64,000 nucleotides of DNA, from NCBI RefSeq assembly GCF_056712565.1, contig NZ_JBWXXM010000004.1, one strand, 5' to 3'. The notes below the pieces were generated by a model that ran no database searches, was not told the DNA's origin, and saw only the letters and a list, made by a program, of their open reading frames with translations. The stretch is from a plasmid. Shown here piece after piece: positions 2,765 to 63,790 of this stretch (the stretch's first letter is position 1; every line of letters begins with the position of its first letter). A program made the position numbers and the translations under genes.

Positions 2765-3574
2765 TTATTTGCTAAGAGCAGCGAATAATCGTTCGAAATC
2801 GATAGTATCTATAGCACGCGTAAGCGCCGGAAGTTCAGCCTCAAAGTACCCGTGTCGATCGTAAAAGAAGGGACCGAAGAGCGAGGCATGTTGGATTCTA
2901 CTTCGCCCCAGCCCGGACACACAGTTAAGCCCATTACCGGCTAAAAGGCTAAAAAACTTCTCTGGATTATCGTGGTAAAGCTGGGAATCAATGGTGGCGG
3001 TTAACTCTTCCATAGGGAAGCACACCCGCCCTGTATCCCAGGGATATTTAGTCCGAAGCATAAACATTGCTTTCAGCAATTCACATTGAGCGCGGATCGC
3101 GTCCGGTTCATAGCCAGATATGGAGACATAAGCCACGTCCCTCATTCCTGCGTCATCTTTGAAAGTCACGATAGAAGTAACATCCAGCTCTTTTTCGAAA
3201 GAGCAAGCAGCATCTACTGGACGCTGAAGTAAATCATTCGACTTAATGCGCTCGAGAATCCCTCCCCACATATCATTTAGATATTCGATATGAGCCAAAA
3301 CCTTATCAAGACACTCTCGTGTAAACCATTCAGTATGCCCGCCACCGACGCTTTTCTCCCACGGCGCATTCCAGGGGAAAAAGGTTGCGTGTAAAGCCCG
3401 CTCAAGATTAACCATTGCCAAACGCGTACCACGATAGACCCGTGAAAGCGCAAAATCGGGACTCACTTGTAGTCCTTTAAACCGTGCCAATGGACCACAT
3501 GAAATGCCGATTTTAAAAGTATCTCCGTTCTCTGGCACCAGAACGTAGAGGTAGTGTTGTTTCTCTTCTTGCAT
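2765..3574 (-). CDS. T5orf172 / GIY-YIG-like domain protein
   Basis: 269-aa ORF; N-terminus YLYVLVPENGDTFKIGIS resembles T5orf172 (GIY-YIG-like) signature; own terminator; lies between iteron array and parA. Confidence 0.55.
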   Translation of the reverse strand: MQEEKQHYLYVLVPENGDTFKIGISCGPLARFKGLQVSPDFALSRVYRGTRLAMVNLERALHATFFPWNAPWEKSVGGGHTEWFTRECLDKVLAHIEYLNDMWGGILERIKSNDLLQRPVDAACSFEKELDVTSIVTFKDDAGMRDVAYVSISGYEPDAIRAQCELLKAMFMLRTKYPWDTGRVCFPMEELTATIDSQLYHDNPEKFFSLLAGNGLNCVSGLGRSRIQHASLFGPFFYDRHGYFEAELPALTRAIDTIDFERLFAALSK

Positions 3575-3608
3575 ATCAATACCACTGCTTGATGAGAACC
3601 GCGCAAAT

Positions 3609-3865
3609 GTTGACTATGCGCGAAGGTTAATGTGAATAGTTGACTATGCGCGATGTGACTACAGTCAAAAGTTGACTGTAGTCGATTTAACTCCACCAAA
3701 GATCGACTATGTAAGATATTGTCGGGAGAAACGTTGACTATACGCGATGAAATGCCCCTAAAAGCCATCTCAATAGCGACTTGCAGAATATTGACGCCAG
3801 CAAAAATCCACCAGCGTCAACGAATGTCGCCTATAGTCAACTTCTCGCTATCGCATATAGTCAAT
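3609..3865. repeat. iteron array downstream of repA (incA-like copy-control locus), about 8-9 copies
   Basis: Repeated GTTGACTATGCGCGA / CGC.TATAGTCAA units in both orientations at 3609, 3639, 3671, 3701, 3733, 3828, 3852 and others. Confidence 0.7.
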
Positions 3866-3866
3866 A

Positions 3867-4787
3867 TTATGGATTGCGCTTATGGATCTGGAAGCCGATT
3901 TTCCTGCCGTTTTTTATCTCTGAAAATTTAAGATATTCAATAGCTTCCAAATCTTTCATGGCTTTTCTGATAACGCTATTTTGCACGCTAACGGATGATT
4001 TGAGATTAAGCCTCGCTCTAAGGCGCTCAATGCTGACAGGTGCCGGGTTGGCGGGTAGAGCCTCAAAGAATGTATACAGTACCTTGGCCGTCTCTTTGCG
4101 CCCTAGTTTATCCAGCATCTTCAGCTTCAGGATTCGCTTATAGTCAACATAGTAAAGTTCAGATAGCTGTTTCTGCGGCTGGATCTCGATAACATCAAGC
4201 TCGGTATTCAGGCTGCTATATGCCAACAAGTTGACGTTAATGTTATTGAGATGACCTTTTGCCGCCGGGAAGCGGAATTTGACAACTGTCTGCTGAATGC
4301 GTGTCAGAGAGTCATCAATACTTTTACGGAACGCCTTTGAAAGGCGCTTACGTGGATAGCCGCATCGATCGGCAAACTCGGAGAATGGCAGGGTGATTAT
4401 GCCGTCATCATCAGGTGCGTAGTCAAACAACGCGGAAGTTATGCCCACCCACACCTTAAAATCAGTATCCATATCCAGGCGTGGACCATGAATTTCAATT
4501 CCCTCATAGCCTTCCTGCTCAACAATTTTGAGGCTTGATAGTTCTTCAGTTGCGTTCGTTGTGTTTGTTGTAACTGACGATCCGCGACGTAGCGCCACAT
4601 TGGTAGATTTTAAGGTTGGCACAAACACACCTAAGCGCAACAAAGCGATGGGTTGTATAGTGCTGTTGTTATTGGGCTTCAGGCTGTGGATTTCTCCTGT
4701 ATTTCCTGCAACTTCTTCAACGCTAAGGAAGCCTTTACTTTCTTCCGGCATCACGGTTTCTCCATGTGTGGCGCGGCCTGACGTCAA
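3867..4787 (-). CDS. repA: RepA plasmid replication initiator (iteron-binding)
   Basis: 306-aa ORF flanked by iteron arrays on both sides; RepA-like motifs (GPRLDMDTDFKVW); alternative start at 4751. Confidence 0.8.
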   Translation of the reverse strand: MTSGRATHGETVMPEESKGFLSVEEVAGNTGEIHSLKPNNNSTIQPIALLRLGVFVPTLKSTNVALRRGSSVTTNTTNATEELSSLKIVEQEGYEGIEIHGPRLDMDTDFKVWVGITSALFDYAPDDDGIITLPFSEFADRCGYPRKRLSKAFRKSIDDSLTRIQQTVVKFRFPAAKGHLNNINVNLLAYSSLNTELDVIEIQPQKQLSELYYVDYKRILKLKMLDKLGRKETAKVLYTFFEALPANPAPVSIERLRARLNLKSSVSVQNSVIRKAMKDLEAIEYLKFSEIKNGRKIGFQIHKRNP

Positions 4788-4835
4788 TTTGGATGGCTGT
4801 TATCAACAGCTGTGAATATTCAGACTCTAAAATCG

Positions 4836-55252: not shown

Positions 55253-57983
<2,731 letters not shown>

Positions 57984-57991
57984 CCATCAAA

Positions 57992-58020
57992 AATAACCCC
58001 GGCGGCTGCCGGGGTTCTCG
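57992..58020. terminator. bidirectional terminator between pro and lyz block
   Basis: AAAAATAACCCCGGCGGCTGCCGGGGTTCTCGTT; strong when read on minus strand. Confidence 0.6.
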
Positions 58021-58027
58021 TTAACTA

Positions 58028-58282
58028 TTATCGCCTTCGTCTGCGTGCCATATATTTTCGCACCGCGCGACGTGGGCAATCTGAAGCGGTTTCTTTCTGC
58101 TGCATCAATCTTGCAGCCATGCTCAAAAATGTCAGGCACAGCCGAAGCCCGGCATATAATAGCGGTTCCAGTGGCCACGTCTCATTGATCACATATACCG
58201 CCATGAAAATCGAGTCGAAAACTATCGCCGCCAGCGATAACTTCATTGTCGAAAGTCGGCGGAGCTGCCGGAGTTTATTCAT
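58028..58282 (-). CDS. small membrane protein downstream of lyz (holin/pinholin candidate)
   Basis: 84-aa ORF (or 72 aa from 58246) with two hydrophobic segments; overlaps the lyz stop. Confidence 0.3.
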   Translation of the reverse strand: MNKLRQLRRLSTMKLSLAAIVFDSIFMAVYVINETWPLEPLLYAGLRLCLTFLSMAARLMQQKETASDCPRRAVRKYMARRRRR

Positions 58283-58832
58283 TGACCAGTCCCGTCAGGC
58301 AAAGCTGACGTTCTTTTTCACGGCGAATCTTTAAGCCTCGCAGTGGCACGCCGTTACTGTTCACGAAATCAGGGAGATGGTTACACATATTCACCCATTC
58401 CCCTTTCTGCGCCCACTTGTGGATGGACGTTTCTACTCGCATGCCTCGCGCTTTGCTGTAGTAGGTCCGTAAACTATTGCATCCCATATTGAATGCCGCG
58501 CTTGTCATTGCACTGAAGGCATTATCGGGCATGTCTTTGCCCCGGAAGTGCTGATTAATACAGCGTTCAGCGATCAGGATATTCTTTTCCCAATCAGCGG
58601 CGATTTGCTGGTCGGTTTTTCGCACGCCTGGCGTTACCCCGTGTGTATTACCAATCCCGTCAGTCCATACACCCGCCGGGCACATGTATGGGTCACGTCG
58701 GCAACCTTCAGCGTTTCCGATAAGCTCAAGCCCCGCCTGGTTGGTTCGCACATTGCCATTACCCATCACGATGGTAATCATCACCGCGATAGCGCAAATT
58801 GCACCGCCTCCTGCGGCTGTTTTTCCCTTCAT
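58275..58832 (-). CDS. lyz: SAR endolysin (lysozyme with signal-arrest-release domain)
   Basis: 185 aa from MKGKTAAGGGAICAIAVMITIVMG; Gly/Ala-rich SAR segment then T4-lysozyme-like catalytic region. Confidence 0.9.
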   Translation of the reverse strand: MKGKTAAGGGAICAIAVMITIVMGNGNVRTNQAGLELIGNAEGCRRDPYMCPAGVWTDGIGNTHGVTPGVRKTDQQIAADWEKNILIAERCINQHFRGKDMPDNAFSAMTSAAFNMGCNSLRTYYSKARGMRVETSIHKWAQKGEWVNMCNHLPDFVNSNGVPLRGLKIRREKERQLCLTGLVNE

Positions 58833-58963
58833 AAAGACCTCATAAGCGAATTTTTTACGCTCCAGGACAACACCCATTCACAGCCAATACCGACTGACTC
58901 GATCCCTTTAGAAGGCACAGGATAATGCAAATCACTTGTTAGCTACGTTTCAAAGATATACAT

Positions 58964-58980
58964 TATTGCTCTAATTAATT
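58964..58980 (+). promoter_or_regulatory. C1-operator-like site upstream of ssb
   Basis: ATTGCTCTAATTAATTT. Confidence 0.55.
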
Positions 58981-59000
58981 TATTTTATTAGGTAAGATAA

Positions 59001-59489: not shown

Positions 59490-59686
59490 ATGTGTAAAAA
59501 ACGACTGAAAGAAAAGCGGTGGTCCAGACGCCAACAAAAGCACGAACTCGCTAAAAAACGCCAAAGTTGGCAATGGCACGCGTTTTTAACGAACAGAACA
59601 CCACGAGATATTGCTTTCGCTGGTGGGAAAACATTCCTAACCCACCTGAAGACGCAATACATCAGTTTTTAAGCAGAGAAAAGACT

Positions 59687-60475
59687 ATGACAGCACAAAA
59701 AACTAAAACCATTCAATACCGCCTACGTAATGGCCAGAGTGTCGAAGTGACCATCAATAATGATGGAGTACCTGGCGAAAAAGTTTCTATCTCTGATCTG
59801 GCTATCGAAAAAACCATCATGTGCCACCTTGGCTTTACTGAAGAAGTGAGCAAAAAGCATGGTGTAGCAATCTGGAGCGCAATGGATACTGGTATGCGCA
59901 AGTTCATTACTGCTCGTACCCCAGGGATGACCATGATGGACCTCATGCAGATTGCGCCGCTGTTTGAATGTGAGCCTTTAGATGTATTCAGCAATCCAGC
60001 TATCTGCCAGCAGTTATATGGTGAGATGAAACTCGCGGTTACCCCCATTGTGCTGCATGAAGGATCGCTTGCTGGCGTGTGGAAAGTAGAGCGTATTTCA
60101 AGCTACATGCCTTTCCATGTCAACGGCGTAATCACTGGTGAAAATCAACCTGTTTCCGTTATAAAGTCAGACCTCAAGCGCGCAATTCTTGAAGCAAGTT
60201 GTCGAGTTGTCGGGCTGGGCAAACAGTCTTATGTTTCCTTCCCGGCTGGCCCTGAAGGCCCGGCAGAAATTCTGATTATGGATGCCGATCTGCTCTGGCA
60301 AATACAGTTTCTGATTGGCAAAAGCATCATCCGCGCTGAAGAACTCGATCAGTACATTACCTGCACGATGACGGATGAAGTCAAAAGTGTGGCTATAGCC
60401 AATGCCCGGAACCTATGTCGTGCTGCATTAACAGAACTGCAAGAAAACACCACGGAAGAAGTGGAAAGCGATTAA
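59687..60475 (+). CDS. hypothetical protein
   Basis: ORF-track frame 59567-60475; likely start MTAQKTK at 59687; followed by terminator. Confidence 0.45.
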   Translation: MTAQKTKTIQYRLRNGQSVEVTINNDGVPGEKVSISDLAIEKTIMCHLGFTEEVSKKHGVAIWSAMDTGMRKFITARTPGMTMMDLMQIAPLFECEPLDVFSNPAICQQLYGEMKLAVTPIVLHEGSLAGVWKVERISSYMPFHVNGVITGENQPVSVIKSDLKRAILEASCRVVGLGKQSYVSFPAGPEGPAEILIMDADLLWQIQFLIGKSIIRAEELDQYITCTMTDEVKSVAIANARNLCRAALTELQENTTEEVESD

Positions 60476-60477
60476 AA

Positions 60478-60503
60478 AAAATCCCGCCGATTGGCGGGAT
60501 TTC
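60478..60503. terminator. bidirectional intrinsic terminator
   Basis: AAAAAAAATCCCGCCGATTGGCGGGATTTCTTC. Confidence 0.6.
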
Positions 60504-60504
60504 T

Positions 60505-60813
60505 TCAATATACGATCTGGTCTACATGATCACCAAAATCATCGTCGTCGTCCTCATCGCCACCATCTACTGCTGGCCAATCAACAAACCAGCCAGCGTA
60601 AAGATGCAGCGTTCGGAGAACATCACTTGCGGGAGCATCAAGGGTGTTAACGAATCCCATATAGCTATTGGGATTTGCTCCAGCTATGGCTTCAGCGATC
60701 ATGTCCTCGGTAATGTCACCGGAGATAATGCTTAAACGCCCGGAAACTTCTTCATTATCATCAAATTCGATAATGGCATCTCCGCCTAATGGCGCTGCGA
60801 TTTTAATCTGCAT
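60505..60813 (-). CDS. acidic hypothetical protein, last gene of minus-strand operon
   Basis: 102-aa ORF ending in Asp/Glu-rich tail; start overlaps ddrB stop. Confidence 0.45.
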   Translation of the reverse strand: MQIKIAAPLGGDAIIEFDDNEEVSGRLSIISGDITEDMIAEAIAGANPNSYMGFVNTLDAPASDVLRTLHLYAGWFVDWPAVDGGDEDDDDDFGDHVDQIVY

Positions 60814-63790
60814 TATTTAGCTCCTTTGCCACACCTAATAACAGTTCCAGCAATCCGTCACCATTCATCAGTGATGCGGCAGCGGCCTCTTTGTCATGAT
60901 ACAACTGAAGAGCCATAGAGAATACTTCCGTTGCTGACGTTTTGGAAATAGTCGGTGATTTCTGCCGAATTTTCCCGGAATTACTCACTGAGGCTGGCGG
61001 GTATACCTTCGCCATATAAATATTACTCAATCGAGATCTGAAGCACCATTCAGGCTTGCCACGCCCACCGATATTAACGAAAGATGGCTTATCCCCTTCA
61101 ACATTGGCCTTCAGGAATGACCGGGCTTTCTCTAACAAACCAGGGTTACTGTACTCAAGATGATGACCCAGCTCGTGCCACAGTGCACTTGCATTTTCAT
61201 CGTTCAAATTGACAGCAACAACACCATTAAGATTTGCATATGCCCTTCCCTGGTGGTGAACCACCTTTGTTAAGGTCGAAATTTTACCGCCGGTCAGGCG
61301 ATAAATATCAGCAAGTTCCTTGCGCAGGTCTATCCCACCATTCTGTCCAGCGCGGGCTTCTTCCACTTCTTCCGTGATAAAAGAGTCGGCCCACTCAAGA
61401 GCTTTTTCTTCAGATACGGATGAGTTGGCGATCGCACTGTTCATGGCAGATAACACTTTCTCGTGGACCGAACCCATACTTCGCTGATTCATTTGCCAGC
61501 GTGTCTGCGGGTTATATGAGAATCGCTTAAGTAGTTGGTCAAGCTGCTCAAGTTCTTCTTCACTGACATACTTTTTAGCCTCACCAATAATGCCAGGGAG
61601 AATATTGCCGTTAGGATTAAACGCTCGCGAAAGGAAGAGTTTCAGCGCCCCCATGCCCTCCGATGCTTCAATATCACCAATAACCCGGTTAACAATGGCC
61701 GCACTCTTCGGATTAGCATCCGCCAACGCTCTGGCTACGATTTGCAGGGACGATACGACCTCACGCTGCATATCCGTCCTGATCTCATCAATAAACTCTG
61801 GCGTTATGCCGTGCTCTTTAAGGATATCCCGGCCTTCCGCCGTTACCCCATCGATATCACCGACATGTTTATTAACACGACTTTGCAATGCCTTAAATGC
61901 CTTCAGAATTCCACGGGCATCATCCGCTTTACTAACGGCCTTCCTGAATGCTGGCAAGAAGTCAGAGTTAACCTCATTTTGTTGATCGGCCCACTGAATG
62001 GAGGCTTCTTTCATCTCGTCCAGAGTCAGATCACCCAACGCGGTATGGTCTGTGAATATGAGCGACAACCTCTGAACCATTTCTGCCAATGGTGATGCCG
62101 AATGCGCCGCGCTAAGGAATGCTTTCACCCTGGTTGGGCGAATGGAAAACCAGTCAATAGCTGGTGGCATATCTCCGTTTTTTATCGCCTGCGCTATCTC
62201 ATCAAAGCCGTCGCGCCCAAGGGAGGATGCGTGATTTAACAATCCGCGAAGTAACGAATTGCTGATACCGAATAATCGGCACCATTTATTCACGTCGGCA
62301 ACAGGCATTCGAACAAAATGCGCAAGCACTTGTACAAGCTGTTCATCCTGGGGATCTGTACGGGAAAGCAGCCTGATCAGATGAATAATGTCTTTGATGC
62401 CGGATGCCCGATGTAATAGCAAGCTGGTATATGGAGCAACACCGTTGTAACTACCGCCGGAAACGGACTCGAAAAGACCGCCGGATATCCCTTGCATGCC
62501 TTCGTTTTCCAGTTCCTGAGACACCTGGCGAAGGATATCCTGTAACGACACATCACCACCGCCAAACATATCCCCCAGCGCCTGGCCCTGGTGCTGTAAC
62601 TCATCATTGATACGTTGAGCCATCAATTTAAAGGCGGTGGCCATACGCTTCGCGCTACGGTTATTCGCGACGATGAACAACGCGAGAGCTTTCACTTCCG
62701 GGGCTGTTTCGCTGAACATATCCCCCTGAGCAATAACATCGGTAATATGTTGGCCTGACTCCTTCGATTGCCTTACCAGGTCTACCGCATCTTTCAATGC
62801 CGCCAGCGCCTTTTTATCGAGACTATCCGCTGTCTCAATACCATCAACAATAGTTGTCACAGCCTGCTTGTGCGCTTCTCCTGATAAAGCCTGCATCTGG
62901 ACAAAATCATTGGCTGCCGCATTAAGCGCCGTCAGAACATTACGCATATCCGGATCAGGTTCTTCTGCAACCATCCTTACCAGGCGCGCATCCTTATATG
63001 CCTTGGCAAAGATCGCGTTTTGTATACGGTCAACAAGTTGCCGCGTTGGTCGCCCATCTTCCGTTACAAGGCCAGCCGCCTGTGTGGCACCAACTTGCGT
63101 CATAAATCCGCGAATAAACGCGTCATTACTGCGGCTAAGCAGATCTCCGCTTTCTGACGGGTTAAAAAGCGCCATCATCGCCGGTGTTATGCTGTCGGCA
63201 TCAACAAAAGCCTTTTCACTGGCTGCCATTTCCTGAAGATCAGAAATATTTGAGTCCTTGGCAAACTGAACGCGGTCAACCTTGGTTAACCGGCGGCGCA
63301 CCAGTACCGGAGCCGTCATTGATTCAACCTTTTCAGGTCGTATGCCGAATTCGGTCGCATGATCAATCAGGTACTCACGATACCGATCCGCATTGCCGTC
63401 CTGATAGGCTTTGATGATCCCCATGGTCCGTCCATTACCTGACTCAACGGCATTGTCCTCACCAATTATCGGCGCACCATGGCTGGATAAACCGGAATCA
63501 GTAAGCTGAGCAGGCCGCAAATCTTTGGATATCTGGTTAACCTGAAGAAGGCTGGATGCGCGGGTCCGGTCGCGCGGCTGAAGTTCCTGGGGATAGTCAG
63601 GATTAATTTTCCCATCCAGAGTATTGGATACCAAAAGAGCTGAGGCATCGACGATATCAAACGCTGTTTTTACCTCGTCTCCCTTCGCTGTCACCACATA
63701 CGAAACCCGCCCATAACCGGGCAGGTTCTTTAGCAGCTCGATCAGCGTTTCTATGCTGGTGGCCATTACCACCTGATCGCTTAAGCTCAT
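60803..63790 (-). CDS. ddrB: DdrB-like large virion protein (HExxH metallopeptidase-like motif)
   Basis: 995-aa ORF; HELGHHLEY motif; position between ssb side and darA-operon genes. Confidence 0.55.
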   Translation of the reverse strand: MSLSDQVVMATSIETLIELLKNLPGYGRVSYVVTAKGDEVKTAFDIVDASALLVSNTLDGKINPDYPQELQPRDRTRASSLLQVNQISKDLRPAQLTDSGLSSHGAPIIGEDNAVESGNGRTMGIIKAYQDGNADRYREYLIDHATEFGIRPEKVESMTAPVLVRRRLTKVDRVQFAKDSNISDLQEMAASEKAFVDADSITPAMMALFNPSESGDLLSRSNDAFIRGFMTQVGATQAAGLVTEDGRPTRQLVDRIQNAIFAKAYKDARLVRMVAEEPDPDMRNVLTALNAAANDFVQMQALSGEAHKQAVTTIVDGIETADSLDKKALAALKDAVDLVRQSKESGQHITDVIAQGDMFSETAPEVKALALFIVANNRSAKRMATAFKLMAQRINDELQHQGQALGDMFGGGDVSLQDILRQVSQELENEGMQGISGGLFESVSGGSYNGVAPYTSLLLHRASGIKDIIHLIRLLSRTDPQDEQLVQVLAHFVRMPVADVNKWCRLFGISNSLLRGLLNHASSLGRDGFDEIAQAIKNGDMPPAIDWFSIRPTRVKAFLSAAHSASPLAEMVQRLSLIFTDHTALGDLTLDEMKEASIQWADQQNEVNSDFLPAFRKAVSKADDARGILKAFKALQSRVNKHVGDIDGVTAEGRDILKEHGITPEFIDEIRTDMQREVVSSLQIVARALADANPKSAAIVNRVIGDIEASEGMGALKLFLSRAFNPNGNILPGIIGEAKKYVSEEELEQLDQLLKRFSYNPQTRWQMNQRSMGSVHEKVLSAMNSAIANSSVSEEKALEWADSFITEEVEEARAGQNGGIDLRKELADIYRLTGGKISTLTKVVHHQGRAYANLNGVVAVNLNDENASALWHELGHHLEYSNPGLLEKARSFLKANVEGDKPSFVNIGGRGKPEWCFRSRLSNIYMAKVYPPASVSNSGKIRQKSPTISKTSATEVFSMALQLYHDKEAAAASLMNGDGLLELLLGVAKELNNAD

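Follow-up and report, generated by a model that had tools for sequence, protein, structure and literature searches.

LydD, very probably the pinholin of a P1-like lyz-lydD operon, and its predicted place in the DUF7940 family

Introduction

In Lyz of phage P1, the prototype signal-arrest-release (SAR) endolysin, the SAR helix keeps the enzyme inactive at the membrane, and its release leads to activation by disulfide rearrangement among Cys13, Cys44 and Cys51. The product of the adjoining gene, lydD, was studied in P1 and P7 by Bednarek et al. 2022 (Int J Mol Sci 23:4231, PMC9025707), who concluded that it is a pinholin. A plasmid carrying both lyz and lydD brought about faster and more complete lysis than one carrying lyz alone, and deletion of lydD delayed lysis. 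The lydA lydD double mutant formed no plaques; lydA lydC mutants did. In both the phage and a two-plasmid system LydD was unable to support the soluble lambda R endolysin, unlike LydA and LydC, which support lambda R and therefore make large holes. This inability, taken together with the acceleration of Lyz-dependent lysis, indicates that LydD acts as a pinholin. Loss of lydD also shifted the pattern of cell shapes during lysis from 'SAR endolysin-pinholin' to 'canonical'. LydD was accessory in shaken liquid culture and sufficient on solid medium, and in liquid E. coli culture P1 lacking lydA failed to lyse despite an intact lydD. The formation of nanometre-scale holes and depolarisation by LydD were deduced from the phenotype (all PMC9025707).

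Here we compare with this system a lyz-lydD locus found in a 64-kb stretch of DNA, referred to as the window.

Results

A 1.1-kb segment containing the two genes (57900-59000) matched 19 phage records over its full length at 96.7-98.4% identity, P1, P7, RCS47 and SJ46 among them, and collinearity with P1-like phages including the same four extends over the final 24 kb of the window. The full-length matches and the collinearity identify the window as a P1-like phage or plasmid prophage (Punavirus), and we are confident that the lyz-lydD stretch is the late lysis operon of such a phage. In AF234172, the P1 record, the corresponding place carries annotations for lyz ('lysozyme'), for lydD ('putative holin') with lydE ('putative antiholin') overlapping it, and for the late promoter LPlyz; the pair lyz-lydD is flanked there by the convergent gene pro on one side and by the divergent gene ssb on the other. 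P1 and the window have in common the gene order ssb, lyz lydD, pro, as well as an 8-nt overlap of the two lysis genes, the late promoter and a terminator.

The late promoter driving lyz-lydD was positioned from the P1 annotation at 58919..58937 on the minus strand, with the −22 box AAGTGATTT and the −10 box TATCCT, and its sequence, AAGTGATTTGCATTATCCT, is the same in the window and in P1. The intrinsic terminator occupies 57985..58016 on the minus strand, in the interval that separates the convergent genes pro and lydD, and starts 12 nt past the lydD stop. Its hairpin AACCCCGGCAGCCGCCGGGGTT at 58016..57995 combines a 9-bp GC-rich stem with a 4-nt loop (AACCCCGGC-AGCC-GCCGGGGTT) and is followed by the T-tract ATTTTTGATG. 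The predicted RNA fold has a free energy of −20.1 kcal/mol, compared with −8.8 ± 2.5 kcal/mol for shuffled sequences (z = −4.47), and none of 200 shuffles was as good, which bears out the strong terminator that a first-pass annotation had placed after the open reading frame (ORF) downstream of lyz. Transcription of lyz-lydD would be expected to begin at the Lpa-dependent LPlyz and to stop at this hairpin. A tblastn search of the 64-kb window found none of lydA, lydB or lydC, which in P1 lie about 10 kb from lyz-lydD in a separate operon.

The order lyz then lydD is also kept in divergent P1-like plasmid prophages (loci L002-L008). In these prophages lydD and pro are separated by two inserted genes, one RepL-like and the other convergent and with a ProQ domain (about 3233..4800). 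In L002-L007 the ProQ-like gene shares 23 nt with the 3' end of lydD, and in L008 it starts past the lydD stop.

Elsewhere in the collinear region, isaA (59519..59600, plus strand) contains an in-frame stop at codon 12 when read from the GTG annotated in P1 (VVQTPTKARTR*K versus VVQTPTKARTRKQ), and the ORF is open again from 59567. This implies that isaA is damaged in the window or else that the P1 annotation places its start too far upstream. IS1 and isaB, which separate isaA from hxr in P1, are absent here (60475..60820), and Hxr aligns over residues 1-76 of 102 only.

The gene lyz (58275..58832 including the stop, minus strand) encodes a SAR endolysin of 185 amino acids with a T4-type lysozyme fold. 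It starts at the ATG at 58832 (MKGKT; MKGKTAAGGGAICAIAVMITIVMGNG...), and a Shine-Dalgarno sequence, GAGG, could be read 5 nt 5' of this codon (58838..58841, minus strand). The protein is 100% identical to P1 Lyz (gp17) over all 185 residues, so that there is no difference at the protein level. It matched the Pfam family Phage_lysozyme (PF00959, 2e-22), the endolysin family PHROG 7 (7e-69) and the PDB entries 1XJT (1.8e-128) and 1XJU (7.6e-110). The SAR domain, at approximately residues 6-26 (58755..58817, minus strand), coincides with the hydropathy maximum, is Gly/Ala-rich and holds Cys13; Cys44 and Cys51 are likewise present. Residues 7-23 of the N-terminus, AGGGAICAIAVMITIVM, have a mean Kyte-Doolittle value of 2.24 and consist to 53% of G, A, S, T or C, as in a SAR segment, and the maximum over residues 7-24 amounts to 2.24-2.44. 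The assignment of lyz as a SAR endolysin with a Gly/Ala-rich N-terminus, made earlier from the sequence alone, was therefore correct. Lysozymes that adjoin relatives of LydD carry a comparable SAR-like N-terminal segment.

Directly downstream, lydD occupies 58028..58282 on the minus strand and encodes 84 amino acids. The first-pass annotation had described this ORF accurately, including its coordinates and its overlap with the lyz stop. The product is identical to P1 LydD (AAQ13988) at 83 of 84 positions and matches PHROG 21930 'holin' with 2e-58 over positions 1-84 of 84. The start of lydD and the stop of lyz overlap by 8 nt, which read ATGAATAA (58275..58282, minus strand). This sequence is kept at the lyz-lydD junction in L002-L007, where the overlap is called as 4 nt in L002 and L003 and as 8 nt in L004-L007. 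The Shine-Dalgarno sequence of lydD is weak (GGGA), and we infer that its translation is coupled to that of lyz via the overlap.

Short length, the weak GGGA and absence from the feature lists at many database matches are what an untranslated chance ORF would display. The evolutionary record of the lydD frame speaks against such an explanation. Seven nucleotide differences separate it from P1, of which six are synonymous and one is a conservative exchange in the first transmembrane domain (TMD1; I32 here, L32 in P1). Homologues encoded at L002-L007 (P0001-P0004; Salmonella, Klebsiella and other Enterobacteriaceae) are 77-85% identical to LydD at saturated synonymous sites, and dN/dS in this frame is 0.05-0.15 in comparisons with relatives at 77-99% protein identity. 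These values indicate that lydD is more than a chance ORF and is under purifying selection. Protein homologues with invariant residues can furthermore be followed down to 31% identity, and lydD mutants have published phenotypes (PMC9025707). Conservation and genetics thus refute the chance-ORF reading, to which we attach next to no probability, and the conservation in P1-like genomes that the first-pass annotation had named as a check is borne out. We accordingly treat lydD as a genuine lysis gene.

In PLSDB, lydD DNA was found in 495 plasmid records, mostly non-mobilizable E. coli plasmids of about 90-100 kb. The feature lists at these matches usually contain only 'lysozyme' and lydD often seems to be unannotated, bearing in mind that the PLSDB gene table is incomplete. 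For annotators, the point is that many records of P1-like plasmids appear to lack a lydD annotation.

The 3' half of lydD is overlapped in another frame by the P1 gene lydE, which encodes 71 amino acids and runs through the terminator. The matching ORF of the window, located from the ORF list and the P1 annotation (57987..58178, minus strand), encodes 63 amino acids; a TAG in place of a TGG codon makes it eight codons shorter than its P1 counterpart. In L002-L007 stop codons interrupt the lydE frame, and its sequence shows no conservation. The apparent dN/dS of lydE, 1.7-3.3, is as expected from an unselected frame that overlaps a constrained one. Removal of lydE caused no lysis phenotype (PMC9025707). 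On these grounds we rejected lydE as an antipinholin; the 'putative antiholin' of P1 annotations looks like a non-gene and is most likely a spurious annotation. Three database proteins (P0005, P0006 and P0008) begin as LydD and then switch to the lydE frame, and these LydD-LydE fusions are presumably frameshift variants or assembly errors.

LydD contains two hydrophobic segments, at approximately residues 14-33 and 38-59, separated by the short loop NETWPLEP. Hydropathy, AlphaFold2 and invariant alignment columns delimit TMD1 (58184..58243, minus strand), which contains the family-invariant Asp23, and TMD2 (approximately residues 38-58; 58109..58171, minus strand; LEPLLYAGLRLCLTFLSMAARL), which contains the invariant residues P40, Y43, R47, L50, T51, A57 and R58 and a single Gly. 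An AlphaFold2 model based on an 11-sequence alignment showed a two-helix hairpin (H3-35 and H40-83) of moderate confidence, with a mean pLDDT of 70. The two-transmembrane topology predicted in the first-pass annotation agrees with both the hydropathy profile and this helical hairpin. Searching the PDB with the LydD family profile returned no matching sequence at E≤1. Four of the first 12 residues are basic (K3, R5, R8 and R9), and the protein ends in a basic tail (residues 71-84, RRAVRKYMARRRRR; 58031..58072, minus strand) that terminates in RRRRR and was described as cytoplasmic (PMC9025707). As judged by the positive-inside rule, both termini would be cytoplasmic.

Two transmembrane domains with a basic C-tail are an architecture common to class II holins, and LydD is labelled 'holin' or 'putative holin' in P1, P7, RCS47, SJ46 and PHROG 21930. 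It could on these grounds be a canonical holin making large holes through which endolysins pass non-specifically. Its failure with soluble lambda R, the substrate that LydA and LydC do support (PMC9025707), and the location of its gene immediately behind that of a SAR endolysin, which is typical of pinholins, make a large-hole function improbable. The N-terminal charges bear on a second alternative, namely a delay of lysis by LydD acting as an antiholin or lysis inhibitor: four positive charges resemble the extra charge that makes the phage 21 pinholin antagonize itself (PMC9025707), and the record MH422554 labels LydD 'putative antiholin'. The genetic effects of lydD have the opposite sign, since its addition to lyz speeds lysis, its deletion delays lysis, and LydD alone with Lyz suffices for plaques in the lydA lydC mutant (PMC9025707). 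We consider an inhibitory role very unlikely, even more so than a large-hole one, and retain the pinholin as the function of LydD.

An in-frame Met13-Lys14 just 5' of TMD1 is conserved in P1-like relatives, and distant relatives have L, I, V or M at this position. We consider use of this codon as a second start improbable: the sequence reads no Shine-Dalgarno ahead of it, Met is not conserved in distant relatives, and the apparently equivalent start of the distant homologue P0017 has an upstream ATG. A 72-residue product initiated at the conserved Met13 in P1-like phages, forming an antiholin/holin pair with the 84-residue protein, is accordingly a low-probability option. Between the codons of Met1 and Met13 the mRNA strand contains a small 6-bp stem-loop, CCGGCA GCTC CGCCGA (58256..58271), which in form recalls the structure governing start choice in lambda S.

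Beyond the P1-like phages, LydD matched the Pfam family DUF7940 (PF25612) over model positions 7-63 of 63 with 22.1 bits (E = 2.3e-4). As this score is below the 27-bit gathering cut-off, automated annotation misses the link. An exhaustive phmmer search with LydD against 1.84 billion representatives yielded 13 matches at E≤0.001. Eight of these are small proteins (54-82 amino acids; 31-52% identity to LydD), each of them a match to DUF7940; the carriers P0009 and P0011, for example, were found at 5.7e-13 and 1.4e-08. DUF7940 was likewise matched by every one of the 11 aligned LydD-family sequences. Residues D23 (TMD1), E34, P40 (loop), Y43, R47 (TMD2), T51 and R58 are invariant between LydD and its DUF7940 relatives. 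Judged by sequence, LydD is a divergent member of DUF7940, from which it differs in a longer basic C-tail of about 20 extra residues.

We then examined seven genomic contexts of distant DUF7940 relatives (L008, L009, L010, L011, L012/L013, L014 and L017). In five of them (L008, L009, L011, L012/L013 and L017) the DUF7940 gene comes directly after a Phage_lysozyme gene encoding a protein with a SAR-like N-terminus; at the other two, L010 and L014, no lysozyme adjoins it. Four of these five DUF7940 genes overlap the lysozyme stop or adjoin it, as does the fifth, that of L017, when an upstream in-frame ATG is used. A spanin-like gene is located downstream in four of the five, all of them in non-P1 phages (L009, L011, L012/L013 and L017). 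Three of the spanin-like genes contain DUF2570 or DUF2514, and that of L009 has no Pfam match, only an N-terminal hydrophobic segment.

At L017 (620..842) the DUF7940 homologue P0017 has been called from an internal Met, giving 59 amino acids. The called start is probably wrong, because starting from the upstream in-frame ATG, which lies across the lysozyme stop, brings back the conserved N-terminus MLIDNWHKSWRLSS.

A literature search found no papers on DUF7940. LydD links this family with experimentally tested pinholin activity, and the usual place of its genes after SAR-type lysozymes supports transfer of the function; together these observations suggest that DUF7940 is a family of LydD-type pinholins.

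Discussion

We conclude with high confidence that LydD of the window is the pinholin of a P1-like lyz-lydD operon, an assignment that transfers to it the phenotype determined in experiments on the 99%-identical gene of P1 and P7. The lysis-timing role that the first-pass annotation had suggested for this ORF, including a possible pinholin function, is thereby supported but had already been published (PMC9025707). The lyz-lydD operon is annotated and experimentally characterised, and the points made here for annotators leave the current understanding of phage lysis unchanged.

For the molecular route of hole formation by LydD we infer the following sequence of events. Lyz would be exported by Sec and remain inactive, with the weakly hydrophobic SAR helix at its N-terminus tethering it to the inner membrane. 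LydD, translated from the start that overlaps the lyz stop, would insert as a two-helix hairpin with its basic N-terminus and basic C-tail in the cytoplasm. It may then build up until, at a set time or critical concentration, pinholes form and the membrane potential collapses. Depolarisation would release the SAR helix of Lyz to the periplasm, where the enzyme would refold into its active form and degrade the cell wall. The LydD holes are predicted to be too small for a folded soluble endolysin. In P1, LydD acts together with LydA and LydC, both canonical holins, and with LydB, an antiholin.

The class II holins LydA and LydC resemble LydD in being small proteins with two TMDs and basic C-termini that work with the same endolysin, and are unrelated to it in sequence (PMC9025707). 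A functional counterpart is the phage 21 pair S21 68/R21. S21 68, like LydD, is small, has two TMDs and a basic C-tail, and is encoded beside a SAR endolysin; it triggers lysis by depolarisation, as LydD would, and neither protein releases soluble endolysins (PMC9025707). BLASTP aligned LydD with S21 68 nowhere at E≤100, and a Pfam scan of LydD at E≤1 returned DUF7940 and no holin family. LydD is therefore not placed in the S21-type family.

The two systems also differ in organization and in the proteins themselves. The gene order is reversed relative to phage 21, as lydD comes after the endolysin gene. LydD lacks the glycine zipper that characterizes TMD2 of S21 (also in PMC9025707), and no dual-start motif of the phage 21 kind is obvious in it. 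Its N-terminus has four positive charges, compared with one in the phage 21 pinholin (also in PMC9025707), and for this reason TMD1 of LydD should not leave the membrane, in contrast to the SAR-type TMD1 of S21. Extending this comparison to the family leads to a tentative picture that we regard as possible, if rather doubtful. LydD, as the sole functionally characterised member of DUF7940, might represent a widespread second class of pinholins that is coupled to SAR endolysins and has no sequence relationship with the phage 21 type. Its mechanism might be unlike that of S21, with a conserved basic N-terminal helix holding TMD1 in the membrane and the invariant intramembrane pair of Asp (TMD1) and Arg (TMD2) lining or gating the pinhole.
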